A stretch of 64,000 bases of DNA from Novipirellula aureliae. GTDB lineage: Bacteria > Planctomycetota > Planctomycetia > Pirellulales > Pirellulaceae. The stretch lies in assembly GCF_007860185.1 (NCBI RefSeq), contig NZ_SJPY01000002.1, positions 252,374 through 316,373 on the forward strand. The letters run 5' to 3'. Below the pieces are notes generated by a model. The model made no database searches. It was not told the DNA's origin and saw only the letters and a list, made by a program, of their open reading frames with translations. Of this stretch, positions 21,650 to 41,487 are shown in pieces; the first letter of the stretch is position 1; each line of letters begins with the position of its first letter. The position numbers were made by a program, and so were the translations under genes.

Positions 21650-22774
21650 CTACGGACGGCCGAGGCAAACGCCGGTGAGTTCGGCGGTTCGGACCCAGGG
21701 GTGATCCTCCGTCACCAGCTTTTTTTTGCCGGCGATATCCGCTAGCGGTAGCGCTTCGAATCCGTCACCGCGAGCTGCGACCATGACACCATAGGTCTGG
21801 TTGTGCAGCAGTTCTGCACAGGATGCACCGAGCCGAGTCGCCAGAATGCGGTCGGTAGCCGATGGCGTGCCGCCACGTTGCAAGTGACCGAGAATGGTCA
21901 AGCGTGATTCGATTCCTGTCAACTCTTCCAATTTCTTCGTTAACTTGAGCGTATTACCAACATGGTTTTCATGGAATTCGGCCAGTTCTTCTGACGCTTG
22001 CTTGCGTTCTTTCTTTGAATCGGCTTCTTTTTTCTGGCGAGCTAATTCTTCGATCTTTTCCGATTCGATCGCCGTCATTGCTCCTTCGGCAACGGCCACG
22101 ATGCTGAATCGACGTCCGCGCCGAGCACGTTCTCTGATCGCGCCTGCGACCGATTCGATCGAGTAAGGGATTTCAGGGATCAGAATCGCATCGGCTCCAC
22201 CCGCGATCCCAGCTCCAAGGGCCAACCATCCGGCGCGATGCCCCATTGTTTCGACCACGATGATGCGATGATGGCTCGTTGCGGTCGAATGCAATCGATC
22301 GATGGCTTCGGTGACAATTTCCAATGCGGTATCAAAACCGAACGAAACATCGGTACCAAAGATGTCGTTATCAATCGTCTTGGGGAGGGTGATCACATTG
22401 AGCCCCGCGTCGGCCATACGTAGCGCATTTTTCTGAGTACCGCCGCCCCCGATGCAAACGACGGCATCGAGCCCATGTTTACGGTAGGTATCGACGGCGG
22501 CCTGAGTCATATCCTCGGTTCGATCACCGATCGGCATTTTGTGCGGTTTATCGCGACTCGTTCCGAGTATGGTGCCTCCATCGGTCAGGATCCCAGCGAG
22601 TTGTTCCCCATCGATACGTAAAATCCGATCTTGGGTCAGCCCTCGAAAACCGTCGCGAAAACCGATGACGGCCATGTCAAATTCATCCATCGCCGCCTTG
22701 CCGACTCCTCGAATCGCTGCATTAAGGCCAGGACAATCACCGCCGCTCGTTAAAATTCCAATTGATCTTCTCAC
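21650..22774 (-). CDS. pfk: 6-phosphofructokinase (PFK-A family; phosphoryl donor not resolved)
   Basis: [19 protein letters not shown], ...[11 protein letters not shown]..., [20 protein letters not shown]. The GGDGS box is GGGGT here, so PPi-dependence cannot be excluded. Confidence 0.85.
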
Positions 22775-23034: not shown

Positions 23035-24939
23035 TCAGCGTCTGCGGCGTCCCTGCTTTGCTTTGCGTTTGATCATTGCTTTGCGTTTTCGGACCCATTC
23101 GGGTTGCACGCTGGCAAGATCAATTCCAGCAGCGAGGAGTGCCTTGTCCCAGTCGCCATAGAATTTTTCAGCCGTCAATATCAGAGCACTATCGCGAATA
23201 TCATCGTCGCCATGCGAAACCGCTCGATGGTTGAGTGGTATCCCCTCCTTGTGCCGACGTTGTAACTCCGCGATGACTTCGTCGCGGCTTTCATAGGTGC
23301 GATAAGTACGCTTCTTCATCGCTTCGTAGTCTTGCTGCTTGTGAACCACCGAATCGTACTCGATTCCAGCGGCTTCGATCGCCGCTTGCCAACTGCCAAA
23401 CAATTTACGAGCACTGTAGAGCAGTGGCTGATCGGTGGCATCGCCGTGGGTAAGGCCACGTACGTTAATCGGCTGGTCCTTCTTTTGCCGTTTGCGAATT
23501 TCGTCGACGACTTGCTTTTCCGTAACGTATTTCCGAATCGGTTCGAGGTTGAATTGATGGTAAGCTTTCGGATCTTGTCCCGACGCCCTGACGGCAGCCT
23601 GCCAGGTGCCAAAGAAACCGCTAGCCATACAATAAAGTTGCTTGTCGATCTCGTTTTGGCAAAGTTGCTCTCTTGCCAACGACCGACCGCCGCGGTTCCG
23701 TTTCTTCAGCTCAGCGGTCACTTTTGCAGTCGTTGAAAATGGGGTTTGACTGGCCTCGCGAATTTGTCGCGAATTGCCACCCGCCTTTTTGACGGCGTTT
23801 CGCCAACTGCCGAAGAGCTCGAACGCTTTCTTCCATAACCGCAAATCAGAGCGAGAACCGTAGTAGAGATCGAGAGGTGCTAGGCTATACTGATGATCCA
23901 ATCGATAGCGGATCGCTTCAAGCACATCCTGTTCGGTTTCATAGTTCACACGTCGGACACGCAACTTTTGCGGAACCCGAGCGGCATCGAGACAGGCGGT
24001 CCAATTACCAAAAAAACGAGCTGCTGCGTCGGTTAGCTGCGTGCCATTCGGCCACAAACTTACTGCCGTATGAGACAAATCCGCCTTTTCTCGGCTCTTT
24101 CGCCGCACCTCCTTTAACACCGATTCCTTCGTCAGATAGTGATGACCTCCAAAAACGGCTTTGCCAAAATCAACCTTCGCTGCTTCTAACGCGGCGGTCC
24201 AGTTGCCGTAACGGCGCATCGCCCAAACAAATTGCCGCGGTCGCCGATGCCACGTGTCATACTCTCCGAGTAACGTGACTTGCGTGCAATCGACTCCTCG
24301 ACTTTCACGGTCCTCAAGCCATTGCTTGAAATCGGCGAGCGTAAAGTCACTGTCTCGCGTGAACCCTCGATACTCCACAGGGTCAATATCGATTCGCCGC
24401 AGCACATCATCCCAGCTCATCGGATCGAGGAAGATTTTGAACACACCAACCAAGGAGCAATCGATCGTCGTCATCGTTTCATAGTCCATCCAAAAGCCCC
24501 GCATGGCATATTCGTTGATACGGTCCAATATGTATTCGGCGGTGTAAATGGGTTCCCAATGTGGAATGAACTCGGGATGAGGGGGGCGTTTTGAATTGCC
24601 TGTCAATTTTTCGCGTAAACGCTCGCTGACGAGTTCCGCATCGGGATACTCCTCGCGATAATCTTCGGTCGACATCTCGTGAGCCGACCGCAGATGTACC
24701 GTCAAATTCTGAAAACGACGGCCACAAACACGACACTCCGTCGTTTCACGCACATAAATGCGGATTTTATCATACGTCAAACCGGCATCCGCCAGGGCCG
24801 CTTTCCATCCCCAATACGGAGTTTCCGCATAGACAGCCGAAACCAATTCCGGATGGTCTCGTTTGACAGCAGAAAGGTTCAACGGTTCACATCGCCGATG
24901 TAGACGGCGAATGGTTTGGATTACTTGTTTACGGTTCAT
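23035..24939 (-). CDS. MucR/Ros-type C2H2 zinc-finger protein fused to ~7 homing-endonuclease-associated (HNH_repeat-like) repeats
   Basis: Near N-terminus: CRVCGRRFQNLTVHLRSAHEMSTEDYREEY (C-X2-C-X9-H-X4-H plus the E-YR-W/Y tail of the Ros/MucR domain). Then repeated ~60-aa modules each ending in an aromatic-G-x-W-x-x-A-h-x-x-A-G motif: YGNWTAALEAAK, FGNWTACLDAAR, FGSWRNAVKKAG, FGTWQAAVRASG, FGSWQAAIEAAG, YGDWDKALLAAG. Basic C-terminal tail. Confidence 0.6.
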   Translation of the reverse strand: MNRKQVIQTIRRLHRRCEPLNLSAVKRDHPELVSAVYAETPYWGWKAALADAGLTYDKIRIYVRETTECRVCGRRFQNLTVHLRSAHEMSTEDYREEYPDAELVSERLREKLTGNSKRPPHPEFIPHWEPIYTAEYILDRINEYAMRGFWMDYETMTTIDCSLVGVFKIFLDPMSWDDVLRRIDIDPVEYRGFTRDSDFTLADFKQWLEDRESRGVDCTQVTLLGEYDTWHRRPRQFVWAMRRYGNWTAALEAAKVDFGKAVFGGHHYLTKESVLKEVRRKSREKADLSHTAVSLWPNGTQLTDAAARFFGNWTACLDAARVPQKLRVRRVNYETEQDVLEAIRYRLDHQYSLAPLDLYYGSRSDLRLWKKAFELFGSWRNAVKKAGGNSRQIREASQTPFSTTAKVTAELKKRNRGGRSLAREQLCQNEIDKQLYCMASGFFGTWQAAVRASGQDPKAYHQFNLEPIRKYVTEKQVVDEIRKRQKKDQPINVRGLTHGDATDQPLLYSARKLFGSWQAAIEAAGIEYDSVVHKQQDYEAMKKRTYRTYESRDEVIAELQRRHKEGIPLNHRAVSHGDDDIRDSALILTAEKFYGDWDKALLAAGIDLASVQPEWVRKRKAMIKRKAKQGRRRR

Positions 24940-25120: not shown

Positions 25121-25691
25121 GCTTCATTTTCGATCCGCTCACGTTTCCAATCTTGGCCTGTACAGCACATTGCCATGCAAAAAAGGTGTATTGAAATCCT
25201 TTAGGGAGAGTCGGACATGCCGGAAACGAAGCATGACGCACGATTGAATGTTCGAATCAACAGCGTATGGAAGAAAACCATAGAAGACGCCGCTGCTCAA
25301 ACACTTCACATCGCTTAACTCGTTGGAATTCGAGCGGTAGAAGTTGACGCTATCGATAATGCGGCTCAACCATTCTATCTCATGTTTGGATTCGGAAAAT
25401 CGCTCAAATTGAACTGGTTGACGCCGCGTAGTGGGGAGCTTGGCAAAATCATATAAACCCATCTTTTCACCGCTTATCCTCGAACCTTATCCGGGCTAGC
25501 TCGGATGATTCATGGGCTTGCAAATTGTTTTGCTAACGTCTACGCCTTCAAGCGTTTACGTTCTTTGCTCGAAAAACAGTCTGCGTATCATCCGGGCTAG
25601 CTGGTTTTAGGTTTGACCGTCAATATCGCCGACGATTTTGTTTTTCCGAAAGCTGGGGAGAAGCGGCGAAAGCCTGGACTCCAACGAGTGG

Positions 25692-28600
25692 TTATCGATC
25701 CGGTGGGGGGGTGCGTGGTTCGAACGATGCCTCGGCTTCGTCGTACTGTTGGAGCATTTTTTCGAGTTGTTTTTTCAGACCTTCTAGGTCGCGGCTGTTG
25801 TCTAAGGATTCATTCAATAGCGGACGAAGCCATTCTTGCATTAAATGAAATTGGCCTTTGACTAATTCGGCAATCTCTCGAGGCACGCGGTACTGGACCA
25901 CCACCTTTTGCTCGGGCGGCGACAGTGCTTGCTGGGTGCTGATCTGTTCCAGATTCTTACTCGTTGCCGTTAACGTATCGGATAACTGTGATGCGGATGT
26001 CGATAGACTTTGCCGCAGCAGATCGAGCCGTGTGTCCATCCGCTCTTCCGCTCCTTCGCGGCCGATCGCGATGGCTTTGGAGATAACTTGCCGAATCGAT
26101 TCGAGTCCATCTCGCATCGATGCTAATTGTCGCATCAACTGGCCCGCCTGATCTTCACTATCCATTCCCTGCATCCGTACACTTTCGACATAAGCGTACT
26201 TGATCGCATCCCAACGCTCTTTCTCTTCCGCCGTCAAAATCCCCATAATCTCTTTGAACTTTAAAACGTTCGCTTCGTTGTCGGTCGTCAGTGTTTGTGC
26301 ATCCTGCTCGTACGTACTGACGATCAAGGTTTGCAACTCTCGCTCGTTCATCACGCCCGCCACCCGCTCGGCGATGCGGTTCATGTTTCGGTAACTACCC
26401 TGCAATTTGAACGCTGGCTCCGTTCGATAGGCATCCGCTTGCGCCGCACTTCGGATGTAGGCACGATTGACCTTCAACACGACGTCGCGAACCCGCAGCA
26501 GTTTACGGATAACTTCGAACATTTCGCGAACTTGATCGACCGATAGATTACTTTCAAGCTCAATCCCCTCGAGTGAATCTCGCCCTGCGGCGCGGATAAT
26601 CGCTCTCGCATCCTCGGGCGGTGCGGTCGCCAACGGCGAGAGCGTACGATTGCTGGTCAAGCAATTCTCTAGATAGCTCATTTCGAATGCGTCAGCCGAA
26701 TCGCCGATGATTTCACCGAGGTTATAGACATCGGCACGGTTGCTGAGCATATCGGGAACTTGGAATCGCTCACCACTTTCGGTATACGGATTACCCGCCA
26801 TGACGACGGCGACACGGCGTCCTCGCAAATCGTACGTCCGCGTTTTCCCATTGCGCACCCCTTCGATCTTGCGAGTCGCATCGCAGAGCGAAATAAACTT
26901 TTGCAGTAACTCGGGATGGGTGTGTTGGATGTCATCCAAGTACAGCATCACGTTGTCACCCATTTCCAAAGCCAAGTTCAAACGCTCGACCTCTTCGCGG
27001 GCCGCCGCGTTGGGTGCTTCAGCTGGATCGAGTGACGTGACGCCATGACCGATCGCAGGTCCGTTGATCTTCATGAACACCACGCCGAGACGGTTTGCAA
27101 TATACTCCATCAACGTGGTTTTCCCGTAACCAGGCGGTGAAATCAACAGTAGCAACCCCATGCGATCGGTCCGTTTGTCCGCGCCGGCGACTCCCATTTG
27201 TTTTGCCAAGTTATCGCCGATCAGCGGCAGATAGACTTCATCGAGCAGTTGGTTGCGTACGAAACTGGTTAGCACTCGCGGCTTGAACTCCTCTAACCGC
27301 ATCGAGTCGCGTGCGTCGTCCACCAACCGACTTTTCGTTTCATGAAGCTTTCGATAGCGTGGAACAACGTCCGAGCGATAGTGTCGGACTCGGTCAAGAA
27401 TTTCATGGTAGTTCAAACTCATCACGCCGCGAGTAATCCGCGAATGGCTACCCGCCATCGACTCCAGCTTCTTGGCAACCGCCGCCTTGACGACCTTCAT
27501 CGAAGTAGGTCCTGCGTTATAGATTAGCCATGCCAATTCATCGAGATAGGAGGCCGCAGGGTCAAGATCATCGCTGTCACTGTGCTTACTTAAAAACGCA
27601 TCGGCCCAATTGCGTGACAAGATGAATGCGGATGTAGGTGACGACTCGTTCGCTTTGATCGAAGCGGCAACCAGCTTTTCGCGAGTCTCTTCGGGAAGTG
27701 ATTCAGCGAACGAGTGATGTAGATCGGCTGCTCGACTGCTGACGACTCCACGCCGTGGCGATTCGACGAATTGTTCGAACAAGTAGTCTGCCATCAGCTC
27801 GGGGGTAACGTTTTGCGAAAAGATTGGTTTCCACAACAATCCATCCGCTTCGGCAAGCTCGCTCAAACGGTGACGAAACTCCACGGCAGGTTTTGCCTCC
27901 GGAAATGCTTTTGCCAATTTCGCGAATCCCGCGATCCAATCGGTCATCGCTTTGCGTTGTTTCGAGTCGAGTAACTTATTAAACCACAGCAGCGACGCGG
28001 TGCGAACCGACGGAGAATGTCGGAGCAGCCCAATCGATCGGCTAAATTCTAGAAGCGACTTCAAGATCTGCATCGCGTCGAGATCGTGAACCCCTTTGGA
28101 ATAACCTTCACGAAACCGGTCTTGCAATTGTGAATTCATCCAGGCGGGTGTGACCGCTTCCGAATCGGTAAACACAGACGACTCAAATAAATCGACGGCC
28201 AGAAATTCGCTCCGATAGACGTCTCCGTTTTCACTGATCAGCTCTTGGTCCCACAAGTCCTTTGCGTTCGAGAGGTCCTCGTTTTGCAGCGGTTCGAAAA
28301 ACTGGGTGCCAGTCAGATGCAAACAAATCTCACCATCTCGCAGCACCGTTGTTAAATCGAGTGTTTGAGTGTTTACTGCGAAGCGGTGCCGTCCGAGGCG
28401 GATCACATCGCCACCGTCTTCGTAGAGGTCTTGTCGATCCTTTAGCTGCCGCGACGCGTCTTCTCGAATCGTCTTGAGGCGGCTTTCCAGGTCACCGACA
28501 CGAACCGCATCCCCAAGTTCGCCTAGTTGGCGGATGATGTCGCGGACCTTTTCGACCATCAAATCGCCAGCGAAATAGGCAGCGATTTCTTCGCTCGACT

Positions 28601-30929
28601 CCATCGCTCGCGCACGTGAATCGATCCCCTTGATGATTCGACTGGCGGCCGATGCCAACGATTCAGCTCGGCGGTTTTGCTTTTCAATCAGCTGAACCTT
28701 ACAAGACTCGAAGGCCGCATAAACCTCTTCACGTCGCTCAGCCAATTGGACGACGAATTGATCAAACTCGGCAAACCGGCCTTCCAACTCTTCTAGCTGG
28801 ACCATGATTTTGGTCAGATACTCTTCGCATTTCGCTGGCGTATCCGAAACATCAAGATAACCAGCCGTGGTTTGCTGAAGCAACTTGAGCTGCGACGCGA
28901 ATTCTGCTTTTCCTTCGACGCTTACCAGTTCGCTGACTCGTGCCTTGAGCGAACTGCGTACTCGATTGAGTGATGCGAAAACGGTCCCGATCGCGTCAAT
29001 AATCTCCGTTCGTTTCGTGGCGTCATCAATGCGAAGATTACTGACCGTTTCGGTTAGTAGTTCCAACTGGGAAGCACTTTCGTCGATCGATTCGCCTAAT
29101 TTTTTCGCTTCGGTAACCGACTCAACCGCCGTGACGTTTTCGCCCGCTTCCTCCACACGTGTTTGGTAGAGATCGAGCGAACCAGGGGTCAGTAGAAAAT
29201 CGACACAACGTCGACTGATCCGCTCGGCTTTTTCAGCAGCATCCTTTTCCAGGCTATCGACAATCGCCTCGTCAACATAGCGAAGGTCTTTGAGAGCCAA
29301 GGCTGCGCCCCGTACATGCCGTAGTTTCGCTAGTGCGTCGACAAAATCATCGATCGAAGTGAATCGTCCCCGCTCGATCGTCTTCATCAAATCGGCGACG
29401 TCTTGCTGTACCTTCTTGGTTGCCGACTCCGTTTCGCGGCGAACGCGAACCACTTTTTCGAATTCGTCGACCGCTGCCGAAGCCGCATCGCGAATCTTAC
29501 CGATCGGCTCAGCAAGATGCTCGGTTTCAGCCTTGTCGATCCAAAAATAGTTATCCAGAATACTGGCCGAATTCTTGACCAAATCGACGTAAAGTCCATC
29601 GTAGTTGTCATCCTTGTCGATCAGGTTCAATAGCTCGCTGCATTCGGCCATGCCGCGAACGATTTCCTTATTGCCGATTTTGTAGAGCATCGAGTCGGTT
29701 TGATTGTCCGACACAAAATCAGCGGTCGTAAACGGTGTCTGCCAAACTTGAATCGCATGATGCTTTTGCGGTTCATTGTTCGTCTTGAAGCAAACCATCT
29801 CTCCTGCTTCGAAAAACGTTTGTCCGTTGCAAATCATCGGTGTTTCCACCGTTTGGCGAATCAGGTTATAGGCGAGTTGGACGTAGGTTCCCGATTCTGG
29901 GTTGTAGAACAGGTACAAGAAATCCTCGCCGTTGCTTGATGCGATCGTGCGTTGGTATTGCATATCGCTCAGCCCGTGATCAAACCGCTTGCATTGGCCT
30001 GTTTGTAGGTAATAGCCGCCTGGGAAGATCAGTCCTTGATCGCTCGGCAGCATCACGCAGGCGTGTGCAATTTCATCCAGTCGAATGGCGCTTTGGATCT
30101 TTCCGTTGTAGACCAAATAGCGGGTCGTCGTCTCTTGATAGGGACGGACCTTCATCAGAATCAAATTGCCAACGATCGCATAGTGGATCTCAGCATCGTC
30201 AAGTTTTTGGTCGGCGTGGTCGACGGGTTCGGCGTAAATCCCTTCGCCCGAGTCCGTATTGTTTTCGATCTTGACCGTCAAATCGCCACCAACCGTTTCG
30301 ATGAATACTCGGTCGTCGATCGAAATATGCGGATGTGTTCCGTAGTGATGTTGATCGCGAGTCGTCCGTTCCCAGCGAAACTCGTGCTGCGGCGGCACCT
30401 TCACTTCTTGTTCACTGCGGTTATCGATGTACTCGATCGAATCGGCTGTCATCCGCCATTTGAAACTCTTGATGTCTCGCGATGTTTTGCCGACGCGGAA
30501 TACCATGTGTAACATCGGGCCGGCACGAAAGAAGCGGGCGAACTTCGTGTCTTTATAAAACCGATACAGCTCGTGGAAATCGTTTCGAAAACGCTTGTCC
30601 CCGATCAGATCGAGCGGTTGTTCGTGAAATCGATTCTCACTGAATTGATAAACGGAAAAGACATCCTGCAGTTCAATCTCGTTTTTCAATCCAAATTGGA
30701 CGTTGTAGCCAAAGATAAATCGATCACCGATCGAAATCAGATCGCGAGGAATGCAATTGTGCTCCGTTGTCACCCGTTCGGTTGTGAGCAAACGTGTATC
30801 GATATTTCCAAAGACCGAGGCACGTTGCTCATTGAGCCTCTTCAATCGTCCGCGCAAATCGGTTGCCGCCTCGCGCAGACGATTGCGAAGGACCTCATAG
30901 GTGCCAGCCGCTAAAGGGGTATCCGGCAT
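25692..30929 (-). CDS. giant (1,745 aa) protein with a single MoxR/AAA_5-type AAA+ ATPase module and long coiled-coil regions
   Basis: Uninterrupted 5.2-kb ORF. Walker A LLLISPPGYGKTTLMEYIA, Walker B NVMLYLDDIQHTHPE, sensor-1-like RRVAVVMAGNPYTE (MoxR/dynein-type). The rest has no recognisable domains, with many predicted coiled coils in the central ~600 aa. Last gene of the NfeD-flotillin operon. Confidence 0.65.
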   Translation of the reverse strand: MPDTPLAAGTYEVLRNRLREAATDLRGRLKRLNEQRASVFGNIDTRLLTTERVTTEHNCIPRDLISIGDRFIFGYNVQFGLKNEIELQDVFSVYQFSENRFHEQPLDLIGDKRFRNDFHELYRFYKDTKFARFFRAGPMLHMVFRVGKTSRDIKSFKWRMTADSIEYIDNRSEQEVKVPPQHEFRWERTTRDQHHYGTHPHISIDDRVFIETVGGDLTVKIENNTDSGEGIYAEPVDHADQKLDDAEIHYAIVGNLILMKVRPYQETTTRYLVYNGKIQSAIRLDEIAHACVMLPSDQGLIFPGGYYLQTGQCKRFDHGLSDMQYQRTIASSNGEDFLYLFYNPESGTYVQLAYNLIRQTVETPMICNGQTFFEAGEMVCFKTNNEPQKHHAIQVWQTPFTTADFVSDNQTDSMLYKIGNKEIVRGMAECSELLNLIDKDDNYDGLYVDLVKNSASILDNYFWIDKAETEHLAEPIGKIRDAASAAVDEFEKVVRVRRETESATKKVQQDVADLMKTIERGRFTSIDDFVDALAKLRHVRGAALALKDLRYVDEAIVDSLEKDAAEKAERISRRCVDFLLTPGSLDLYQTRVEEAGENVTAVESVTEAKKLGESIDESASQLELLTETVSNLRIDDATKRTEIIDAIGTVFASLNRVRSSLKARVSELVSVEGKAEFASQLKLLQQTTAGYLDVSDTPAKCEEYLTKIMVQLEELEGRFAEFDQFVVQLAERREEVYAAFESCKVQLIEKQNRRAESLASAASRIIKGIDSRARAMESSEEIAAYFAGDLMVEKVRDIIRQLGELGDAVRVGDLESRLKTIREDASRQLKDRQDLYEDGGDVIRLGRHRFAVNTQTLDLTTVLRDGEICLHLTGTQFFEPLQNEDLSNAKDLWDQELISENGDVYRSEFLAVDLFESSVFTDSEAVTPAWMNSQLQDRFREGYSKGVHDLDAMQILKSLLEFSRSIGLLRHSPSVRTASLLWFNKLLDSKQRKAMTDWIAGFAKLAKAFPEAKPAVEFRHRLSELAEADGLLWKPIFSQNVTPELMADYLFEQFVESPRRGVVSSRAADLHHSFAESLPEETREKLVAASIKANESSPTSAFILSRNWADAFLSKHSDSDDLDPAASYLDELAWLIYNAGPTSMKVVKAAVAKKLESMAGSHSRITRGVMSLNYHEILDRVRHYRSDVVPRYRKLHETKSRLVDDARDSMRLEEFKPRVLTSFVRNQLLDEVYLPLIGDNLAKQMGVAGADKRTDRMGLLLLISPPGYGKTTLMEYIANRLGVVFMKINGPAIGHGVTSLDPAEAPNAAAREEVERLNLALEMGDNVMLYLDDIQHTHPELLQKFISLCDATRKIEGVRNGKTRTYDLRGRRVAVVMAGNPYTESGERFQVPDMLSNRADVYNLGEIIGDSADAFEMSYLENCLTSNRTLSPLATAPPEDARAIIRAAGRDSLEGIELESNLSVDQVREMFEVIRKLLRVRDVVLKVNRAYIRSAAQADAYRTEPAFKLQGSYRNMNRIAERVAGVMNERELQTLIVSTYEQDAQTLTTDNEANVLKFKEIMGILTAEEKERWDAIKYAYVESVRMQGMDSEDQAGQLMRQLASMRDGLESIRQVISKAIAIGREGAEERMDTRLDLLRQSLSTSASQLSDTLTATSKNLEQISTQQALSPPEQKVVVQYRVPREIAELVKGQFHLMQEWLRPLLNESLDNSRDLEGLKKQLEKMLQQYDEAEASFEPRTPPPDR

Positions 30930-30935
30930 GTTGGA

Positions 30936-33065
30936 CTACCCTTTCTTGCCATTTGACTTCGCCACTTTGGCCTCCAACATCGTACTGGCCTTCCGGTCGG
31001 CAATCGCAGCCGTTCCGGCCACGCCGAGCAAGCTAGTCAATTGGCTACGGACATCCTCGCTCTTAGCCATGCCCATCATCTTGGCAATCAGGGCGGCGAT
31101 CGAGAGGTCTTTGACGCCGTCTGTATCCAGGTTAAAACTGGAAACCATCTCGTTCAGCTGGCCACGGAAATAGTCGGCATTTCCATCAAAGAAGGTGTCC
31201 TTGATATCGGTTGCCACTCGGCTGTTGTAAACGAAGCGGTCGATTGCCTTTCCACCTTTGACCGCAGAAGTGATTTGGTCGAAGAATTCGCCATCGCCAC
31301 CAACGATATCGATTCTTGCCGCACGCAGTGCTTCACCAACGACACCCGCTTGGCTTTCGGCAATCCCGCGTTGAGCATCGATCGCCGCGATTTCGACGGC
31401 TTTTTCTTTGTCGAGTTTGAGTTTGAACTCTTCGTGTTCTTTGCCGACACCGTCGAGTTGTTTCATCGCTTCGGCCTTCTCGGTAATTCCGATTGCTTCG
31501 CTGCGATACTTCTCCAGGTCGACGTTCGCTTCGGCCAGCCCTTGTTTCTGGTTCGCCGCGGCGCGAGCTTCGATCCCCTTTGCTTCGGCCATCGCTTTCT
31601 TCTCTAAAATGCTTGCTTCGGCGGTCCCTTCCTTTTCCAAACTGACCGATTTGGCTTCTTGCACTTTCGCTTCGGCCAATCCAGCGGCAGCGGCCCTTGC
31701 AGCTTCCGCTTCGGCGAGCATTTTGGTAGCGGCCGTTTCTTTTTCCGCCGCGTCGCGTTTTGCTTCCGCTTCGATGCGGACTTTTTCGGCCAACAAGGTA
31801 CTCGCATCCTTTTCGGATTGAGCTTGTTTGGTGACGCGAATCAGTTCCTCTTCCGCTCGCATCTCTGCTGCGGTCACTTGTACCTTCTTCAGCCGGTCGG
31901 CTGCCGCGTGTTCCTGCGTGTCTTTGATCCGTTCTTGTTCTTCGACGACCGCCCGTTCGACGGCGACTCGTTCGCGGATCACTTCTTGGATGTTACGTTT
32001 TTCGACCTCGATCGCCTTTTCTTTTTCGACTTCGGCAACGCCGACGACTCGTAGTCGTTCGGTCATTTCTAAGTCGCGATCGCGGTTGACTCGTTCTAAT
32101 TCGACGGCGTCGGTCTTTTCCTTGTTTCGCTGTGCGACCAAGACTTGTCGAGCTTTGTTTTCTTCGGCAATCCCCAATTCCTCTTCGGTCGCAATCCGTG
32201 CTCGCTCAGCTTCGAGCCGTTGTTCTTCACGAACCTTTGCAGCGGACGCTTGTTCGCGTGACGTGATCTCGGCGATTTCTCGTGTTTGTTTCTCGACCGC
32301 TTCGACACGTTGGCGTTCGAGTTCGAGGATGGTTTCTTCCGCTTCGACGTCTTGCTTTTTAAGTATCTTCTCTTTATCGCGAGTGAATTGGTTTTCCTTG
32401 ACCTTTTCGCCAGCCGTCAATTCGGTAATCTTCTTGATACCTTCAGCATCGAGAATGTTGTTCGGGCTGAGTTTTTCGATCGGCGTTTGTTCCAAGTAGT
32501 CGATCGCCGCATCATCCAATTGGTAACCGTTCAAATCGGTACCGATAACCTTCAAAATCTCTTCTTTGAACTTGTCTCGCTGGTCGTAAAGATCGACGAA
32601 GTCAAATTGTTTTCCGACCGTCTTGAGTGCTTCACTGAATTTTGCATCAAACAATTCGCGAAGCGTGTCGATCTCGCTACATCGTTTCGCGCCGATCGAC
32701 TGGGCAACCTCTTTGATTTGTTCGTTCGAACTGTCGACGCGGATAAAGAAGGCGACCTTGATGTCCGCTCGGATGTTGTCTTTACAAATCAAGCCCTCAC
32801 TGCCTTGCCGGGCGATCTCGAAGCTCTTCAGCGTCAAGTCCATGAACTCGTAGCGGTGCAACAGCGGGATGATGAATGCCCCATTATTCGTCGAGACATT
32901 CAAGCCGCCAGCACCCGATTTGACGATCGCACGGTCGGGCCCGACGATGACAAAACATTTCTTAAAGGTAATCATCGCCGCAAAGATCGCGACAACACCA
33001 ATCACCACGACCACAATCCAAAATTGTGTCCAGCTTATCTCGGCAAGAAAAAACAGTGAGTTCAC
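30936..33065 (-). CDS. flotillin / SPFH (band-7) domain protein, YqiK/FloT-like
   Basis: N-terminal TM helix, SPFH core (FVIVGPDRAIVKSGAGG...DLTLKSFEI...KDNIRADIKVAFFIRV), long E/A/K/R-rich coiled-coil flotillin region (AEAEAARAAAAGLAEAKVQEAK), C-terminal GG-rich tail. 709 aa. Confidence 0.8.
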   Translation of the reverse strand: MNSLFFLAEISWTQFWIVVVVIGVVAIFAAMITFKKCFVIVGPDRAIVKSGAGGLNVSTNNGAFIIPLLHRYEFMDLTLKSFEIARQGSEGLICKDNIRADIKVAFFIRVDSSNEQIKEVAQSIGAKRCSEIDTLRELFDAKFSEALKTVGKQFDFVDLYDQRDKFKEEILKVIGTDLNGYQLDDAAIDYLEQTPIEKLSPNNILDAEGIKKITELTAGEKVKENQFTRDKEKILKKQDVEAEETILELERQRVEAVEKQTREIAEITSREQASAAKVREEQRLEAERARIATEEELGIAEENKARQVLVAQRNKEKTDAVELERVNRDRDLEMTERLRVVGVAEVEKEKAIEVEKRNIQEVIRERVAVERAVVEEQERIKDTQEHAAADRLKKVQVTAAEMRAEEELIRVTKQAQSEKDASTLLAEKVRIEAEAKRDAAEKETAATKMLAEAEAARAAAAGLAEAKVQEAKSVSLEKEGTAEASILEKKAMAEAKGIEARAAANQKQGLAEANVDLEKYRSEAIGITEKAEAMKQLDGVGKEHEEFKLKLDKEKAVEIAAIDAQRGIAESQAGVVGEALRAARIDIVGGDGEFFDQITSAVKGGKAIDRFVYNSRVATDIKDTFFDGNADYFRGQLNEMVSSFNLDTDGVKDLSIAALIAKMMGMAKSEDVRSQLTSLLGVAGTAAIADRKASTMLEAKVAKSNGKKG

Positions 33066-33808
33066 GATGATTGCTCCGAAGGTTGAAGAGAGACTTTGTA
33101 GATGCGTTTCCGTTTGTCAAATCCGATGATCCAAACCTCGGTCCCCTTGGGGATCGTCGGACCATCAGTACGAATGTTTAAAAGTAGTGGTGCGGCCTCG
33201 GCGCGAAACTTCGCTTGGCCGAATTCAGGGGTTGCTTCCGTGGTCGTCACCTCACACGTGGCACCCATTAAATGGTTCTCGTCGTATGCTGGACCTTTGG
33301 CAAATGTTCCGACAAGCGGCCCGGTGGCTAATTTCGTTCCCGCAACCGCAATCACGACGTTGCGAATGGAAAGCAGGACACTGGCCCCTACCGCCGGCTC
33401 ATAGCGATTTGAATCGAAGCCATGCCACAACAGGAAAGACACCGACCAAAATATCGTTGCAAAGATGCCGCCCCAAACGATAACCGGAACGCGGCCAAAG
33501 TTGGTCCAGCGAGCTGAAACCGCTCCGATACCGTGCCAAAAATCCCATTCGACCACCGAATCAAGATCCAAACCAGGATCCAAACCAGGATCGAGATCGA
33601 CCTCGGGGACATCAAACCCGAAATCCAACAAACCTATCATCGCCAATGCGGTGTAGGCGATCAACAAGCACACCAAGATCGATGCGGGCCAAATCGGACC
33701 GACGAACATGTTGTTGACCGGATCGGTAATCGAATCCGCGAAGTTCATGGATGCATTGACAAATGAATGGAAAACGAGCCCCGCCACGCAGAGGGGTGTA
33801 CTCAGCAT
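33062..33808 (-). CDS. NfeD/YqiJ-like membrane protein (flotillin partner)
   Basis: 248 aa, 4-5 TM helices, then a soluble C-terminal ~80 aa (GATCEVTTTEATPEFGQAKFRAEAAPLLLNIRTDGPTIPKGTEVWIIG) resembling the NfeD OB-fold. Overlaps the flotillin start by 4 bp, as in yqiJ-yqiK / yuaF-floT pairs. Confidence 0.5.
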   Translation of the reverse strand: MLSTPLCVAGLVFHSFVNASMNFADSITDPVNNMFVGPIWPASILVCLLIAYTALAMIGLLDFGFDVPEVDLDPGLDPGLDLDSVVEWDFWHGIGAVSARWTNFGRVPVIVWGGIFATIFWSVSFLLWHGFDSNRYEPAVGASVLLSIRNVVIAVAGTKLATGPLVGTFAKGPAYDENHLMGATCEVTTTEATPEFGQAKFRAEAAPLLLNIRTDGPTIPKGTEVWIIGFDKRKRIYKVSLQPSEQSS

Positions 33809-34109
33809 AATAGCAAGGCCTGCAGAGAACCAATCCAGGGCGCAAAAGCGGTATGGATTTTGAAGAATAGTGTGGGGGTCAGTGCGCGCAGGCTGATTCC
33901 ATTAGTTTTTACGACGCCGAACCGCCCTAAGTTACTCCAACACGGCTAAAGAGATCGCTCGACGACCGGTAACAAAGGCAGCCGTTCGAATCAATCCTCG
34001 GCATCGATCGTTCCATCGAATAGCAAATCGAATAGCAAACGGTCCGCCGTCATCGTCGATGGCTGCGGAGGATTGGAAGGCCGATAGGGATTGATGGGCG
34101 AGTCCCGAT

Positions 34110-34685
34110 TCACTTTAGCGGTTTCATGCCCTGATGATCGCGGAGGCGATTGAGCCATGCGAATGCGGCAGGGACCGAACGGACAAAGTTAACGAGTGAT
34201 GTCGTGCTCGTCCCCCACTCTTTTGCCACGAAACGGGTCTGTCCGCCCGCAGTATACAAGTCGTTTAACAACAATGCTAAAACCGCGGGTTTGTCCTCGT
34301 TGTTATCATTCATTCGTTTCAGAATTTGACGATACCGATCGCGGAGACTAGCCTCGATCGGATCAGTCGGCGTATCCAATTTTGGCTGACTGCGAATTTC
34401 GATTGCCAGTCGGAAACGAAGCCGCTTTAACGCGATGCGACGATTGTCCGCTTGACTACGTCGCTCGGTCGCCTCGCCAACGATTTGCGAGGGACGGTGT
34501 ATCAAAAACACGCCAGAGCTGGTTTTGTTTCGATGTTGCCCGCCTGGTCCGCTACGCCGCTGAGTTCTCAGTTCACACTGCTCAAGTAAATCCTTTGGCG
34601 ATTGTACCGCCGGATGCACGCCAGCTATCGTGAGAACGTCCATTGGCAACGTCTTCTTCGGTTCGCTCGATTCGCTATCCACCAC
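34110..34685 (-). CDS. arfB: ArfB-like peptidyl-tRNA hydrolase (class I release-factor GGQ domain protein)
   Basis: GGQ motif in RRSGPGGQHRNKTSSGVFLIHRP followed by a basic C-terminal tail (RRIALKRLRFRLAIE). 191 aa, longer than typical ArfB at the C-terminus. Confidence 0.6.
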   Translation of the reverse strand: MVDSESSEPKKTLPMDVLTIAGVHPAVQSPKDLLEQCELRTQRRSGPGGQHRNKTSSGVFLIHRPSQIVGEATERRSQADNRRIALKRLRFRLAIEIRSQPKLDTPTDPIEASLRDRYRQILKRMNDNNEDKPAVLALLLNDLYTAGGQTRFVAKEWGTSTTSLVNFVRSVPAAFAWLNRLRDHQGMKPLK

Positions 34686-36708
34686 TCACAAACTCGCTTA
34701 GCATATTCACGAAATCGGCTGCCAAACTGCGTGAAGGCAATTTCACCACTCCAACGCAAGAACGCCCGATCGAATCGAGCAATGGTTCATGCGGAAGAGT
34801 TGGCAGCGGACATATCACTCGATAGACGGCATCGCGAGTGACGCTCGTTCGATCCTCGCTCATTTGGGAAACCGATTCGATTTTCGTATCGACCCATTCA
34901 CGTTGACCGTAATCGATTCTCACTCGAATCGCGGTACCGCGCGTCACCCAGCGTTGGTCTTTGGCATCGAGCCAAAACATCGCTTGACGCTCTTCGTTCG
35001 TTGCGATTCGGCAAAACGGTTGGCGTGAATCATAGACCGTACCTGCGAAACTGGCCAACCATACGCTCTGATTCGGTTCGTCAACCGGTGTGGTTGCTTG
35101 AGGCGGTATGACGACTCCAGATACCGGCGAATGCACCTGAGTTTCTGCCAATCGTTTTTTCGCTTTGTCGAGTAACGCCCCGACGGACTCTTCGGCAGCT
35201 TGTAGTGTCTTCCACTGTTCGGCGACCTTGGGCCGATCGAGTGCATCGCGACGTGCCAGCTCGCCCCGCATATTCGCCAATCGCAATTCGCCCTCGAGTC
35301 GAGTAATCTCGATTCGCGACGTTTCATCGGTTAGTAGCGCCAATCGGTCTCCGGCGGCTACATGGTCACCGTATTCCGCTTTGATTTTTGAAATTTGGCT
35401 TGAGGGTGGTAAAAAGACGCTCGAGGAGTTTGCCGCATCAATGATTCCTGCTACTTCGCGATAACGCGGTAATGGTAGAAACAAAATCAACAATAGCAAA
35501 ACGGCGGGGGTCGATACGATCGCAAAACGGCGCCACTTCGATACACCCATCCAACTCCCCTTTCCTTGCAAGACACTAATAGAAGCCTTTGTTTTTGCCG
35601 CCATCAACCGTACCGCTACGATACAAACCAAGCCGATTCCTAATACGCTCAAATGAAGCAAATTGGCGACATGAACGATCAACGCGGCAATAGCGAATAG
35701 AACGGTCGTTCGATAGATCGTCGATGCGATGTGATAGCTCGACAACCCAATCGCTATTTTATCTGAGCGGCGGATTTTCTGGTACTGTTTTCCCGCAATC
35801 CTCGCAATGATCGTCGACTCGAACGCTTCACGCGCTTCGCGACGCAAATTCGTACTACCGACGGCATCCAACAACACATAGTAACCGTCATATCGCATGA
35901 GCGGATTGGCATTGAACAGCACGGTGCTGATGCCACAAACCAAGATTAGATTCATCGCATACATTCGTGCCGCCGGATCATCCGCTAATACCCAAACCCA
36001 GGTTGCGGAAGCCGCAATAATCAATTCGACATAGATGCCAGCCAACATGACTGCCGCACGCCGCACCGGGTTCGCAATTCGCCAAACATCGGTCACGTCG
36101 CAATAGGGGCATGGAACGCCGCAAAACAGATAGACACCTACCGATTTACTCTCCGCACCCATCCGTCGACACATGACCGCATGCGCCAATTCGTGGAGGA
36201 CTTTTGTGATCAAAAAAGTGATGCCGATCCCAAACGCATTTGCACTGCGAAGGTACACAGGCAACAAGCGAAGAGACGCGACCCACGCTTCCGATCGACT
36301 TACCAGTACCGCTATCGAAGCGACAATGATTGACATCCAAAATAGAATCGCGACCGGTGAGAAAAGGAATCCGCTAACCGGAGCGAGTCGTCTTGCGATG
36401 CCGTCAATACTGCCTAGCGGAATCTGAATCGCTAAAAAGTTAAACGGCTTGGATGGATTGGATGGAGACTCGAGTCGCTCGCAGGTCCAATCCGCCACTT
36501 TGGCTTGAGTCGACAAGGACGGGTCGACGCGGTCACCGTGAAGTTGTTGCCATGCGTGCTCGCTTATCCTGGAAAATTTCCCGCTAACGTCATCGATTAC
36601 CATTCGATAAGCTCGGGCGTAGCCTTGAACGGATACGCTACGCAGATCCCTTCGAATGAGAACGGAGGGAACGGAGCGAATCTCGTTTGGTAAAATCGAA
36701 TCGGCCAT
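34675..36708 (-). CDS. membrane-embedded M50-like zinc metalloprotease domain fused to a HlyD-type periplasmic adaptor domain
   Basis: HEXXH inside a TM segment (LITKVLHELAHAVMCRRMG), several further TM helices. C-terminal ~300 aa has coiled-coil plus beta-barrel-like HlyD features (AEYGDHVAAGDRLALL ... VHSPVSGVV). 677 aa. Confidence 0.55.
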   Translation of the reverse strand: MADSILPNEIRSVPSVLIRRDLRSVSVQGYARAYRMVIDDVSGKFSRISEHAWQQLHGDRVDPSLSTQAKVADWTCERLESPSNPSKPFNFLAIQIPLGSIDGIARRLAPVSGFLFSPVAILFWMSIIVASIAVLVSRSEAWVASLRLLPVYLRSANAFGIGITFLITKVLHELAHAVMCRRMGAESKSVGVYLFCGVPCPYCDVTDVWRIANPVRRAAVMLAGIYVELIIAASATWVWVLADDPAARMYAMNLILVCGISTVLFNANPLMRYDGYYVLLDAVGSTNLRREAREAFESTIIARIAGKQYQKIRRSDKIAIGLSSYHIASTIYRTTVLFAIAALIVHVANLLHLSVLGIGLVCIVAVRLMAAKTKASISVLQGKGSWMGVSKWRRFAIVSTPAVLLLLILFLPLPRYREVAGIIDAANSSSVFLPPSSQISKIKAEYGDHVAAGDRLALLTDETSRIEITRLEGELRLANMRGELARRDALDRPKVAEQWKTLQAAEESVGALLDKAKKRLAETQVHSPVSGVVIPPQATTPVDEPNQSVWLASFAGTVYDSRQPFCRIATNEERQAMFWLDAKDQRWVTRGTAIRVRIDYGQREWVDTKIESVSQMSEDRTSVTRDAVYRVICPLPTLPHEPLLDSIGRSCVGVVKLPSRSLAADFVNMLSEFVSGG

Positions 36709-36711
36709 CGT

Positions 36712-37689
36712 TTATCGCCAATCGGTCATTCGAATTTTCGCCGACTTGATCGCCGCATCACTGGCGTCAATCCTCATACGAACACTTGTTCCTGGCACCA
36801 ACATCCATTGTGTCATCGGCGAATCGGCGTTCCCATCGATTTGATTGATGACCTCCGCGTGTAATCGATACCGGCCACCCGGTAACCGCTGTGGATCGGA
36901 AGACAGAACGTTGCCCCGGAGCACTTTTTCGTTTCCATTGCTTGAATCGGTAAAGTGGACACTGACGGGCAATCCAGCACAATGTTTGGGCGACAATTGG
37001 TCTTCGCGAACGAGGGCATGAACATGCAATCGATCCATTTTGGCGACCGTCGCAATCGGCTGCCCCTTTTCGATCCATTCACCACTCGACCGAGCGATTT
37101 CGACGACGGTGCCCGCGAGGGGTGAGCTGATTCCAAGATTCTCGATTTGGTCGTCAAGCATGGCCAGATCCGCTTCGCGGAGTTGGACTTCGACAAACAA
37201 TTCACGTCGACGTTTTTCGGCTTGGGCAACCTCAAGTTCGCCACGTTCGACCGCCAATCGCAAACGGCGAAGGTGGCTCATAGGAACCGCACCATTCACA
37301 TCGTTATAAATCGAGCGGTTGGAGTCGAGCTCCGCCTTGGCTTCGGCGAGTGCCGTTTCGGCATACTTTTGTTCAACGTCGTCACCGGCAGCTTGGCGAG
37401 CATGCTCGAGACGCAATGACGAAGCACGGCGACGAATTTTAAGTGTTCGATCGTCAAGTCGTGCAAGTGTCTCATTTTCATTGACTCGCTGGTTAAGTTT
37501 CACTGCGATTTCGGCAATGCGACCCGACTCCAAACTCGGCACTTCAACCTCATCCGCAAAACGCACCACACAATCGGTTACTTCGACGATGCTGCTTTGG
37601 GCGCAGAGGATCGTTGGTGATGCGGCGAGCACGAGCGAAACGATCAAGCGAACTCGCAGAGCTTGTCTTGTTAGCAGCAGTCTGTTCAT
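36712..37689 (-). CDS. HlyD family secretion / efflux adaptor protein
   Basis: Signal-anchor N-terminus, biotinyl-lipoyl-like hairpin (RIAEIAVKLNQRVNENETLARLD ... SSPLAGTVVEI), central coiled coil. 325 aa. 3 bp from the downstream M50-HlyD gene. Confidence 0.55.
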   Translation of the reverse strand: MNRLLLTRQALRVRLIVSLVLAASPTILCAQSSIVEVTDCVVRFADEVEVPSLESGRIAEIAVKLNQRVNENETLARLDDRTLKIRRRASSLRLEHARQAAGDDVEQKYAETALAEAKAELDSNRSIYNDVNGAVPMSHLRRLRLAVERGELEVAQAEKRRRELFVEVQLREADLAMLDDQIENLGISSPLAGTVVEIARSSGEWIEKGQPIATVAKMDRLHVHALVREDQLSPKHCAGLPVSVHFTDSSNGNEKVLRGNVLSSDPQRLPGGRYRLHAEVINQIDGNADSPMTQWMLVPGTSVRMRIDASDAAIKSAKIRMTDWR

Positions 37690-37723
37690 ATTTGGATTTC
37701 TGGTTCAATTTGATCGTAGCTTA

Positions 37724-37900
37724 GGTTTCCAGCCTGGACTCCAATTTTTCCCAGGCTGGAAGCCTAGGCTACGTGAATCGGTTAATGCCTGAACGCCAAT
37801 TTCCCCCAGGCTGGAAGCCTAGGCTACGTGAATCGGTTAATGCCTGGACTCCAATTTTCCCAGGCTGGAAGCCTAGGCTACGTGAATCGGTTATTGCCTG
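37724..37900. repeat. ~54-bp tandem repeat x3 carrying the GCCTGGACTCCAATTTT and CCAGGCTGGAAGCCTAGG motifs
   Basis: ccagcctggactccaatttttcccaggctggaagcctaggctacgtgaatcggttaatgcc repeated three times with variants, in the 223-bp gap between two co-directional HlyD genes. The GCCTGGACTCCAA core recurs at 1594-1624 (reverse), 9043-9060 and 25668-25690. Confidence 0.85.
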
Positions 37901-37912
37901 GACTCTAACGGT

Positions 37913-41474: not shown

Positions 41475-41487
41475 CGAGCCGCACAGC

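Follow-up and report, generated by a model that had tools for sequence, protein, structure and literature searches.

A Conserved Gene Trio Encoding a YqiJ-like Membrane Protein, a YqiK-type Flotillin and a Giant DUF3686 AAA+ Protein in Novipirellula aureliae

Organization of the Locus

The analyzed window, a 64,000-nucleotide stretch of the Novipirellula aureliae genome (contig NZ_SJPY01000002.1), contains three consecutive genes on the minus strand, to which all feature coordinates given below refer. Gene 1 (33062..33808) encodes a YqiJ-like protein of 248 aa and starts with ATG, gene 2 (30936..33065) encodes a YqiK-type flotillin of 709 aa and starts with GTG, and gene 3 (25692..30929) encodes a giant DUF3686 AAA+ protein of 1,745 aa with an ATG start. 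The first junction reads ...TCGTGAAC..., where the GTG start of gene 2 and the TGA stop of gene 1 share 4 bp (33062-33065), and the second one reads TAG-TCCAAC-ATG, with a 6-nt spacer at 30930-30935. The three open reading frames, the overlap and the spacer had been described in an earlier note on this DNA, and all of them were reproduced from the sequence. The 301-bp intergenic region upstream of gene 1 (33809..34109) is the putative promoter region of the operon; no convincing match to a sigma-70 promoter was found in it. A 107-aa ORF at 25139-25462 does not belong to the module; no downstream or flanking gene is conserved. Around the operon, the window encodes housekeeping functions (PFK, LepA, Mla, and HlyD/M50), and the GC content of the operon is unremarkable and in line with its surroundings.

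The YqiJ-like Protein and the Flotillin

Gene 1 is predicted to encode a YqiJ/NfeD-like inner-membrane protein with three transmembrane segments (residues 43-61, 109-127, and 139-157, as judged by hydrophobicity); the protein also has an acidic loop rich in D and, at the C-terminus, a soluble OB-like domain. The latter (33116..33274, residues 179-231) corresponds to the partner-binding domain of NfeD/YqiJ-type proteins; it gives a weak match to the Pfam NfeD model (E=0.007, 16.9 bits against a gathering score of 29.1) and pairs with the YqiJ_OB part of Escherichia coli YqiJ in hhalign. The relationship to E. coli YqiJ is detected both by BLASTP (26% identity over 192 aa, E=6e-6) and by the hhalign comparison of a 15-sequence profile of gene 1 with this protein (probability 96.7%, E=4.7e-10, 176 columns). 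None of the Pfam models YqiJ_N, YqiJ_OB, and NfeD scores above threshold on gene 1, and the homologs linked to the giant gene in other genomes score at or below threshold. Because the Pfam models are sub-threshold yet the profile-profile match is positive, gene 1 represents a divergent YqiJ/NfeD subfamily.

Gene 2 encodes a protein that its sequence features identify as a membrane-anchored YqiK-type SPFH/flotillin. Its N-terminal membrane anchor is a predicted transmembrane segment (residues 15-33), which precedes the SPFH/Band_7 domain (32517..32948, residues 40-183) and a long helical region rich in E, A, and K; the C-terminal part carries a conserved extension. The Pfam Band_7 model matches the first 250 aa of the protein (E=4.2e-13, 50.2 bits against a cut-off of 23.6). 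The full-length query returned zero Pfam or NCBIfam matches, which is probably an artefact of the compositional-bias filter; the Pfam Flot C-terminal model did not match C-terminal fragments of the protein either, and their low-complexity composition triggers the HMMER bias filters. The homology to E. coli YqiK extends past the SPFH domain (31% identity over 446 aa, residues 16-458, E=1e-49, BLASTP). Across 65 aligned flotillins that are linked to a giant gene, the segment of residues about 540-600 shows a conservation of 0.72, and E. coli YqiK has a gap there. Thus, the assignment of genes 1 and 2 as an NfeD/YqiJ plus SPFH/flotillin pair in the earlier note is upheld by the hhalign, Band_7 and YqiK matches.

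The Giant DUF3686 AAA+ Protein

The product of gene 3 is predicted to be soluble, with no transmembrane segment. It had been described as matching no standard family, with the AAA module as its only recognizable element; both statements proved wrong. Pfam model PF12458 (DUF3686) covers residues 24-462 (29544..30860) over the entire length of the model (positions 1-448, E=2.5e-192; score 639.8 bits, cut-off 25), PF25472 (DUF7902) covers residues 585-666 (E=4.9e-26), and there are more than 4,300 homologs. DUF3686 genes are found in at least 584 species genomes and form 959 clusters at 50% identity. All homologs listed carry PF12458 and PF25472, nearly all of them also PF00004, and the protein fits this architecture of DUF3686, DUF7902 and a C-terminal AAA+ domain in a chain of about 1,600-1,900 aa. 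By sequence, it is a member of the Pfam DUF3686/DUF7902 family, and the gene is found at 65-93% identity across many Pirellulaceae genera. The name "DNA repair ATPase", which stands in the Pfam entry PF12458 and is given by NCBI to many of the homologs, together with weak matches to RuvB_N and RuvB, would suggest that the giant protein repairs DNA and that its adjacency to the flotillin is unrelated to its function. We regard this reading as very improbable: Pfam detected no DNA-related domain in the protein, the RuvB similarity is limited to the P-loop, and the literature searches found no support for the name, which we consider unsupported.

In the AlphaFold2 model, an N-terminal helix (residues 8-40) opens the protein, and about 27 strands then form a beta-propeller-like domain (residues 46-397, pLDDT about 90). 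The high-probability Foldseek matches of this domain in the PDB are beta-propellers, including the Kelch protein KLHDC3, the WD40 protein DCAF1, CyRPA, the clathrin N-terminal domain, and prolyl oligopeptidase (target TM scores of 0.3-0.4, E about 1e-5). The next part was previously described as a coiled-coil-rich region of about 600 aa; it actually consists of a linker of long helices of about 420 aa (28425..29690, residues about 414-835), which contains DUF7902 (28932-29177), and a conserved, confidently modelled beta/alpha domain (27510..28412, residues about 840-1140). The latter domain has the near-invariant motifs HRFxVN (848-853), HLTGT (871-875), and GVHDxDA (946-952). The possibility that GVHDxDA marks an HD-type phosphohydrolase was dropped, as neither a profile nor a fold match supports it. 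Pfam gave no match on the middle domain and the C-terminus, sequence and profile searches of the PDB with the giant protein detected only P-loop-level similarity to p97, Rix7, and RuvB, and NCBIfam returned only sub-threshold RuvB and CDC48 P-loop matches.

The AAA+ ATPase core (26580..27182, residues about 1250-1450) contains the three motifs reported earlier, namely the Walker A motif GYGKT (27117-27131, residues 1267-1271), the Walker B motif LYLDD (26931-26945, residues 1329-1333), and AGNPYTE with the sensor-1 asparagine (26778-26798, residues 1378-1384), as well as a candidate arginine finger, R1398 (26718-26741). The Walker B motif departs from the canonical hhhhDE, and neither D1332 nor D1333 varies in two alignments, of 31 and 71 sequences. 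The core as a whole is extremely conserved, with the invariant motifs SPPGYGKTT, DDIQH, GNPY, and PDML.NR, which argues for an active enzyme under selection. It is followed by the AAA+ lid and C-terminal helices (25695..26579, residues about 1451-1745), where conserved post-AAA helices with the motif RTEPxFKLQGSYRNMN precede long C-terminal helices of low model confidence. The fold of the core is nearest to those of MoxR, midasin, and dynein, with a match to AAA_5 and a beta-hairpin between the Walker B helix alpha-3 and strand beta-4 in the model, and we place it with these proteins. AAA+ proteins of the MoxR type, CbbQ and NorQ among them, act as chaperone-like remodellers. The analogy to them is incomplete, because the model shows no evident helix-2 beta-hairpin and a VWA partner is lacking: no VWA domain was matched in the ten proteins around the locus, and no VWA-like neighbor family recurs in the 64 surveyed loci.

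The same model could also be read structurally, with the giant protein acting mainly as a scaffold, tether or coat-like element that organizes flotillin domains or membrane shape and the AAA+ module serving as a nucleotide-dependent assembly switch, with no motor function. This reading draws on the architecture, in which helical bundles extend over hundreds of residues behind a beta-propeller; Foldseek also finds coats or scaffolds that combine a propeller with helices, among them ROD, IFT-A, nucleoporins, and the clathrin N-terminal domain, at low TM scores, and the DD form of Walker B could mean slow hydrolysis. However, in the structure comparison the helical part resembles generic three-helix bundles only, not alpha-solenoids, the AAA+ catalytic residues and the motifs around them are the best-conserved part of the protein, and the DUF3686 family is not limited to bacteria with complex endomembranes. 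On balance, we find a mainly structural role rather unlikely.

Conservation of the Gene Neighborhood

The gene-neighborhood census covered the best 80 of at least 584 genomic matches (at least 44% identity) together with five other loci and the window, and the linkage counts rest on the 64 loci whose upstream sequence extends for 3.2 kb or more. In 61 of these, the flotillin gene immediately precedes the giant gene on the same strand, and 58 of the 61 have the YqiJ-like gene as well; the flotillin pair is missing from three loci (L031, L034, and L052). The trio extends well beyond the Planctomycetes, a question that the earlier note had raised, and spans eight phyla (Planctomycetota, Bacteroidota, Verrucomicrobiota, Desulfobacterota, Clostridia, Actinomycetota, Deinococcota, and Pseudomonadota). 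The median gap is 15 nt between yqiJ and the flotillin gene and 124 nt between the latter and the giant gene, and no downstream or flanking gene is conserved among the surveyed loci, where the flanks vary even among Pirellulaceae. The module occurs, for example, in Pseudomonas (pQBR103), Flavobacterium, Hymenobacter, Streptomyces, and Deinococcus, and some copies reside on large plasmids, among them pQBR103 and others from Hymenobacter, Streptomyces, and Deinococcus. Small genes between the flotillin and giant genes in Bacteroidota were considered as a fourth component and rejected, as they are variable lipoprotein and membrane genes.

Recurrence of this gene order across phyla is beyond chance. 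One could still suppose that a standard yqiJK pair merely happens to stand beside an unrelated large gene, given that E. coli has yqiJ-yqiK without such an ATPase, but the constancy of order and strand across eight phyla (61 of 64 loci), with differing flanks, refutes this, and the 4-bp overlap and 6-nt spacer of the window copy also speak against it, so that we assign it next to no probability. The claim that the three genes form a functional unit, which the earlier note would have given up for homologs that are not syntenic with flotillin/NfeD, therefore stands.

PspA is encoded in 19 of the surveyed loci, and in 17 of them a CesT/Tir-like gene accompanies it; in the Bacteroidota and on pQBR103, the giant protein is co-encoded with PspA and a CesT/Tir-like chaperone. 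A divergent gene for a LexA-like HTH-protease regulator is present in 17 loci of Bacteroidota. HMMs built from 20 PspA and 18 Tir-like neighbors found neither protein in the 64-kb window.

The regulator and the plasmid-borne copies would suit an anti-phage system of the abortive-infection type, in which the flotillin/YqiJ pair would sense or execute membrane damage and the giant protein would be the sensor or effector; giant NTPases are, in addition, common in conflict systems. Against this reading, the sole match in PADLOC-DB v2 is to IetA, with 18 bits over 29 residues of the P-loop; a search of 50,697 phage records yielded no homolog, and no defense genes recur near the giant gene in the 64 loci. 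The housekeeping neighbors, the GC content and the vertical, core-like pattern of conservation across Pirellulaceae genera point the same way. We consider a defense function quite unlikely, and the suggestion of an "abortive-defence type machine, not housekeeping" finds no support in either of its parts.

Discussion

An operon of this kind has been described in silico, contrary to the view that the system was undescribed. Ravi et al. (2024; mSystems, PMC11237479) reported a PSP-associated operon that encodes CesT/Tir, PspA, YqiJ/YuaF, a band-7/flotillin protein and a protein combining a beta-propeller, a coiled coil and an AAA+ domain, gave "abbreviated" forms of it without PspA, and predicted sub-membrane assembly and remodelling roles; the membrane-remodelling role proposed in the earlier note is the same prediction. 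Their account of the operon is one predictive paragraph, with no Pfam assignment, AAA+ clade or experiments. Our literature searches on DUF3686/PF12458 and on a flotillin-linked ATPase returned nothing else of relevance, two SPFH reviews or surveys being silent on the ATPase, and found no experimental work on any member of the DUF3686 family. The present analysis further places the AAA+ core with MoxR, midasin, and dynein and shows an invariant DD Walker B motif and a conserved domain outside all family models.

We think it probable that the trio is a self-contained envelope-maintenance module, a PspA-less abbreviated form of the PSP-associated operon, in which a cytoplasmic MoxR-like remodeller acts on the membrane assembly of the flotillin/YqiJ pair. 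The gene linkage suggests that the three proteins interact physically. By analogy with other SPFH/NfeD pairs, flotillin and YqiJ would probably form an oligomeric scaffold or cage at the cytoplasmic face of the inner membrane. The giant protein would probably oligomerize via its AAA+ ring, dock on this scaffold by its propeller or helical arms, and spend ATP on the assembly, opening or disassembly of the scaffold, or on the release or extraction of clients held there. FloA-NfeD was characterized as an ATP-independent holdase for unfolded membrane proteins (Ukleja et al., 2024; PMC11222466). The giant protein may be the ATP-dependent arm of such an otherwise ATP-independent flotillin/NfeD holdase under membrane stress.

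What bacterial flotillins do is still a matter of debate, and we know of no characterized energy-consuming partner specific to them. With a giant, highly conserved ATPase whose gene nearly always accompanies the flotillin/YqiJ pair, the module provides a concrete handle on this function. More tentatively, the giant DUF3686 ATPase might be the first motor known to be dedicated to bacterial flotillin (SPFH/NfeD) assemblies and driven by ATP, a possibility toward which we remain somewhat skeptical: flotillin cages would be opened, disassembled or unloaded by a ring of the MoxR/dynein clade whose six helical arms carry propellers at their tips. If so, the trio would be an energized machine for membrane-protein quality control or repair in about ten phyla, cooperating with the ESCRT-III-like PspA where the latter is co-encoded, and "DNA repair ATPase" would be a misnomer in public databases.

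Comparison with Known Systems

The E. coli YqiJ-YqiK and Bacillus subtilis YuaF-FloT operons likewise pair a three-transmembrane/OB protein with a downstream flotillin that has an N-terminal anchor, an SPFH domain and EA-rich helices; unlike the window, neither includes a giant ATPase. In addition, the flotillin of the window exceeds theirs by about 150 aa, and its conserved C-terminal extension is absent from E. coli YqiK. Compared with the MoxR family (CbbQ, NorQ, and RavA), whose members are stand-alone proteins of about 300 aa, the AAA+ module of the giant protein sits in a multidomain protein of 1,745 aa, has DD in place of DE in Walker B, and shares only 13-14% sequence identity. FtsH-HflK/C, in which an AAA+ protein is coupled to an SPFH cage, and Vps4/ESCRT-III, in which one acts on a membrane-remodelling polymer, share a concept with the trio by analogy only; FtsH and Vps4 are classical AAA proteins of another clade, whereas the giant protein has no protease domain, MIT domain or transmembrane segment.

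With the operon of Ravi et al. (2024), the window trio shares the three core architectures and the gene order: the YqiJ/YuaF-type protein has three transmembrane segments, and the AAA+ domain is preceded in the same chain by a beta-propeller, at the N-terminus, and a coiled coil. Bacteroidota loci, for example L038, L046, L050, and L077, match the full arrangement of Dokdonia ANH61663.1 (Table S3 of Ravi et al.), including the divergent HTH-protease regulator; from the identical architecture and arrangement in related Flavobacteriaceae, we infer that the neighbor of ANH61663.1 is a DUF3686 protein. The window copy differs from this full form in having no CesT/Tir-PspA dyad within 64 kb and thus corresponds to the abbreviated form. 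It is an ordinary Pirellulaceae member of the PspA-less form and adds no new biology beyond that.

Organization of the Locus

The three genes are consecutive on the minus strand and encode a YqiJ/NfeD-like protein (gene 1, 33062-33808, 248 aa, ATG start), a YqiK-type flotillin (gene 2, 30936-33065, 709 aa, GTG start), and a giant AAA+ ATPase (gene 3, 25692-30929, 1,745 aa, ATG start). At the gene 1/gene 2 junction, TCGTGAAC, the TGA stop and the GTG start share 4 bp, and a 6-nt spacer (TCCAAC) separates the TAG of gene 2 from the ATG of gene 3; the coordinates and tight packing in the earlier note are thus correct. The GC content of the locus (0.51-0.535) is the same as in the remaining window.

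In related Pirellulaceae, the trio is not accompanied by the flanking genes of the window, namely those for an RF-1-domain protein, an M50-HlyD fusion, and an HNH-repeat protein, and a 107-aa ORF; on a Crateriforma contig, the trio is intact but its gene context differs. Just upstream, a four-gene minus-strand run (34110-40147) encodes the RF-1-domain (ArfB-like) protein (34110-34685), an unusual peptidase-M50 and HlyD_3 fusion (34675-36708, overlapping the RF-1-domain gene by 11 nt), an HlyD-family protein (36712-37689), and a further HlyD protein, at 37913-40147, that weakly matches GAF. In other genomes, this cluster and the trio are not linked. A Mla-like lipid-transport cluster (40602-43322), including MlaE permease (40602-41474) and an MlaD-domain protein (42213-43322), lies on the plus strand, opposite to the trio and ~7 kb upstream of it. 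Downstream of the giant gene, the minus-strand 107-aa ORF (25139-25462) matches no family, does not recur in related loci, and may not be a real gene. The minus-strand gene for a 634-aa protein (23035-24939) with a homing-endonuclease-associated HNH_repeat (E = 8e-17) and a weak ROS/MucR zinc-finger-like match is not kept beside the trio in relatives. Housekeeping genes of the window include those for LepA (13540-15351), a Ser/Thr kinase (15412-16995), and PFK (21650-22774).

The YqiJ-Like and Flotillin Proteins

The gene 1 product combines three predicted TM segments with a C-terminal soluble part. Its Pfam NfeD score (16.9 bits) is under threshold, and BLASTP aligns it with Escherichia coli YqiJ at 26% identity over 192 aa (E = 6e-6). 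A 15-sequence profile of gene 1 homologues encoded beside giant genes matched E. coli YqiJ in hhalign (probability 96.7%, E = 4.7e-10, 176 columns). The full-length gene 2 product yields no Pfam or NCBIfam match, probably an artefact of bias filtering on its E/A/K-rich helical region; residues 1-250 match Band_7/SPFH with E = 4.2e-13 and 50.2 bits (cut-off 23.6). This protein has a single N-terminal hydrophobic anchor (residues 15-33) and shares 31% identity with E. coli flotillin YqiK over residues 16-458 (E = 1e-49); unlike YqiK, it carries a conserved C-terminal extension. The YqiJ profile match, the Band_7 match, and the YqiK identity confirm the classic YqiJ/NfeD-like and flotillin pair, both members of which represent divergent subfamilies.

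Stacked long ORFs with TTG starts and lengths of 130-257 aa occur antisense, on the plus strand, within the flotillin gene (31041-33059), and comparable ORFs recur opposite the flotillin gene in 63 loci. Rather than genes, they appear to be shadow ORFs that arise from the E/A/K-rich coding sequence of the coiled coil (AT skew -0.21).

The Giant ATPase

The giant protein, for which no standard family had been recognized, does belong to one: residues 24-462 cover the whole Pfam model PF12458 (DUF3686, E = 2.5e-192) and residues 585-666 match PF25472 (DUF7902, E = 4.9e-26), while the AAA region has weak matches to AAA, RuvB_N, AAA_22, and AAA_5. More than 4,300 homologues were found at E<=1e-5. 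The closest are from Pirellulaceae, including a metagenomic protein (93% identity) and that of Novipirellula artificiosorum (82%), with 65-80% identity across Rubripirellula, Stieleria, Roseiconus, Rhodopirellula, Crateriforma, and Roseimaritima. With residues 1-700 as query, an exhaustive search returned 959 clusters (50% identity) at E<=1e-3, mostly of proteins with 1,600-1,900 aa. Our literature search found no paper that mentions DUF3686 or PF12458. The Pfam description, "ATPase involved in DNA repair," and the NCBI name of many homologues, "DNA repair ATPase," are the sole basis for a role in DNA repair, which we regard as highly improbable: the similarity to RuvB is limited to ~50 P-loop residues, and the modeled fold prefers MoxR. 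The family is very probably misnamed in databases.

Structural statements rest on AlphaFold2 models built from 71-sequence homologue alignments (34-96% identity). The model of residues 1-1190 (mean pLDDT 82.5) predicts an N-terminal helix (residues 8-40), a domain of ~27 beta-strands (46-397, pLDDT ~90), long helices (414-835), a small beta unit (842-880), and a helical domain (906-1137, pLDDT up to 96). Residues 840-1140 (27510-28412) are confidently modeled and strongly conserved, with near-invariant HRFxVN, HLTGT, and GVHDxDA motifs; Pfam models do not match them even at E<=5, structural searches returned nothing informative, and they constitute a candidate new domain family within DUF3686 proteins. 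The model of residues 1150-1745 (mean pLDDT 79) contains a confident AAA+ core and then a lid domain and low-confidence C-terminal helices; within the core, a beta-hairpin lies between helix alpha-3 and the sensor-1 strand. No TM segment is predicted, and no solved structure is related to the protein beyond the P-loop. Propeller-plus-helix coat proteins among the weak Foldseek matches would suit a structural scaffold or coat-like protein with a switch ATPase; the modeled helices, however, seem to resemble generic bundles, and we consider this reading unlikely.

The motifs noticed earlier are all present (GYGKT, 1267-1271; LYLDD, 1329-1333; AGNPYTE, 1378-1384). Conservation peaks in the AAA+ core, where SPPGYGKTT, DDIQH, GNPY.E, and PDML.NR are invariant in sets of 31 and 71 diverse homologues. 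Most AAA+ proteins have a Walker B motif ending in DE; here, the DD of LYLDD (26931-26945) is invariant in 31/31 and 71/71 aligned homologues, presumably resembling the DDIQ Walker B of DnaA.

Conserved Gene Linkage

A tblastn search of plasmid records detected the giant family in Hymenobacter, Pseudomonas fluorescens pQBR103, Streptomyces, Deinococcus, Nonomuraea, Proteus, Vibrio, Halomonas, and Photobacterium. In all four inspected annotated loci, the "DNA repair ATPase" gene is immediately preceded by genes for a small membrane protein and a 640-720-aa SPFH/flotillin protein; the Hymenobacter and pQBR103 loci also contain PspA and a CesT/Tir (YjfI)-type gene. When one genome per GTDB species was scanned, at least 584 relatives were confirmed. 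The census comprised the best-scoring 80 of these loci (>=44% identity), five other loci, and the window, with naive ORF calling. The best 80 are from Bacteroidota (34), Planctomycetota (21), Verrucomicrobiota (16), Clostridia (5), and Desulfobacterota (3), with one unclassified. Neighbors were identified with iterated HMMs from the window proteins in the 64 loci where >=3.2 kb of sequence precedes the giant gene.

The flotillin gene is directly upstream on the same strand in 61/64 loci, and flotillin and YqiJ-like genes are both present in 58/64. The homologues are therefore syntenic with the pair, and the possibility that the adjacency is incidental is refuted. Three census loci (L031, L034, and L052) have no such pair within 5 kb upstream of the DUF3686 gene, and L031 has NTPase/TPR-like ORFs in its place. 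Median gaps are 15 nt (yqiJ-flotillin) and 124 nt (flotillin-giant gene). Several Bacteroidota loci (L027, L030, L035, L038, L039, L044, and L083) have inserts of 0.5-2.4 kb at the latter junction. These consist of small genes for lipoproteins or membrane proteins, which vary between loci, or in single cases of a transposase-like or DUF559-like gene; insertions here are tolerated by the operon. PspA is encoded upstream in 19 of the 64 loci and the CesT/Tir-like family in 17, these being Bacteroidota loci and pQBR103, and no gene family recurs downstream of the giant gene. The adjacency is meaningful: the trio forms a self-contained module, and the functional linkage of its genes is strongly supported.

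The suggestion that this module is a defence system draws on copies carried by megaplasmids and on LexA-like regulators, divergently oriented at 17 loci. Neither PADLOC support nor phage homologues were found, however, and the housekeeping neighbors in the window, the native composition of the locus, and the vertical-looking distribution in Pirellulaceae also make it improbable.

Proposed Role and Relation to Known Systems

SPFH proteins and their NfeD partners form large membrane-attached oligomers, such as HflK/C and QmcA-YbbJ, and MoxR-clade AAA+ proteins are chaperone-like remodelers. According to Ukleja et al. (2024, PMC11222466), FloA-NfeD of Staphylococcus aureus acts on unfolded membrane proteins as an ATP-independent holdase. 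Based on these three properties, we propose a docked ATP-driven remodeler. The soluble giant ATPase would oligomerize via its AAA+ ring and dock on the cytoplasmic flotillin/YqiJ assembly via its propeller and/or helical arms, possibly at the family-specific C-terminal extension of flotillin. ATP use could then drive scaffold remodeling or client release in envelope stress, in cooperation with PspA where the latter is co-encoded. The window genes very probably belong to the module; the proposed mechanism is tentative, with chances slightly short of even, and membership and mechanism stated jointly are somewhat favored.

The system is not undescribed, as had been supposed: Ravi et al. (2024; mSystems 9:e00847-23, PMC11237479; preprint 2020) reported operons joining CesT/Tir-PspA with three proteins, including a 3-TM YqiJ/YuaF protein, and the Flavobacteriaceae loci of our census have the same arrangement. 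The earlier observation was largely right, also in its functional linkage, but not in denying the giant protein a family or the system a prior description. The 64-kb window contains no PspA or Tir-like ORF, and its copy is the abbreviated form, that is, the trio without the CesT/Tir-PspA dyad. It is an ordinary instance, and a new Pirellulaceae, PspA-less member, of a system described computationally and known only from comparative genomics, which makes an attractive candidate for an ATP-driven partner of bacterial flotillins.
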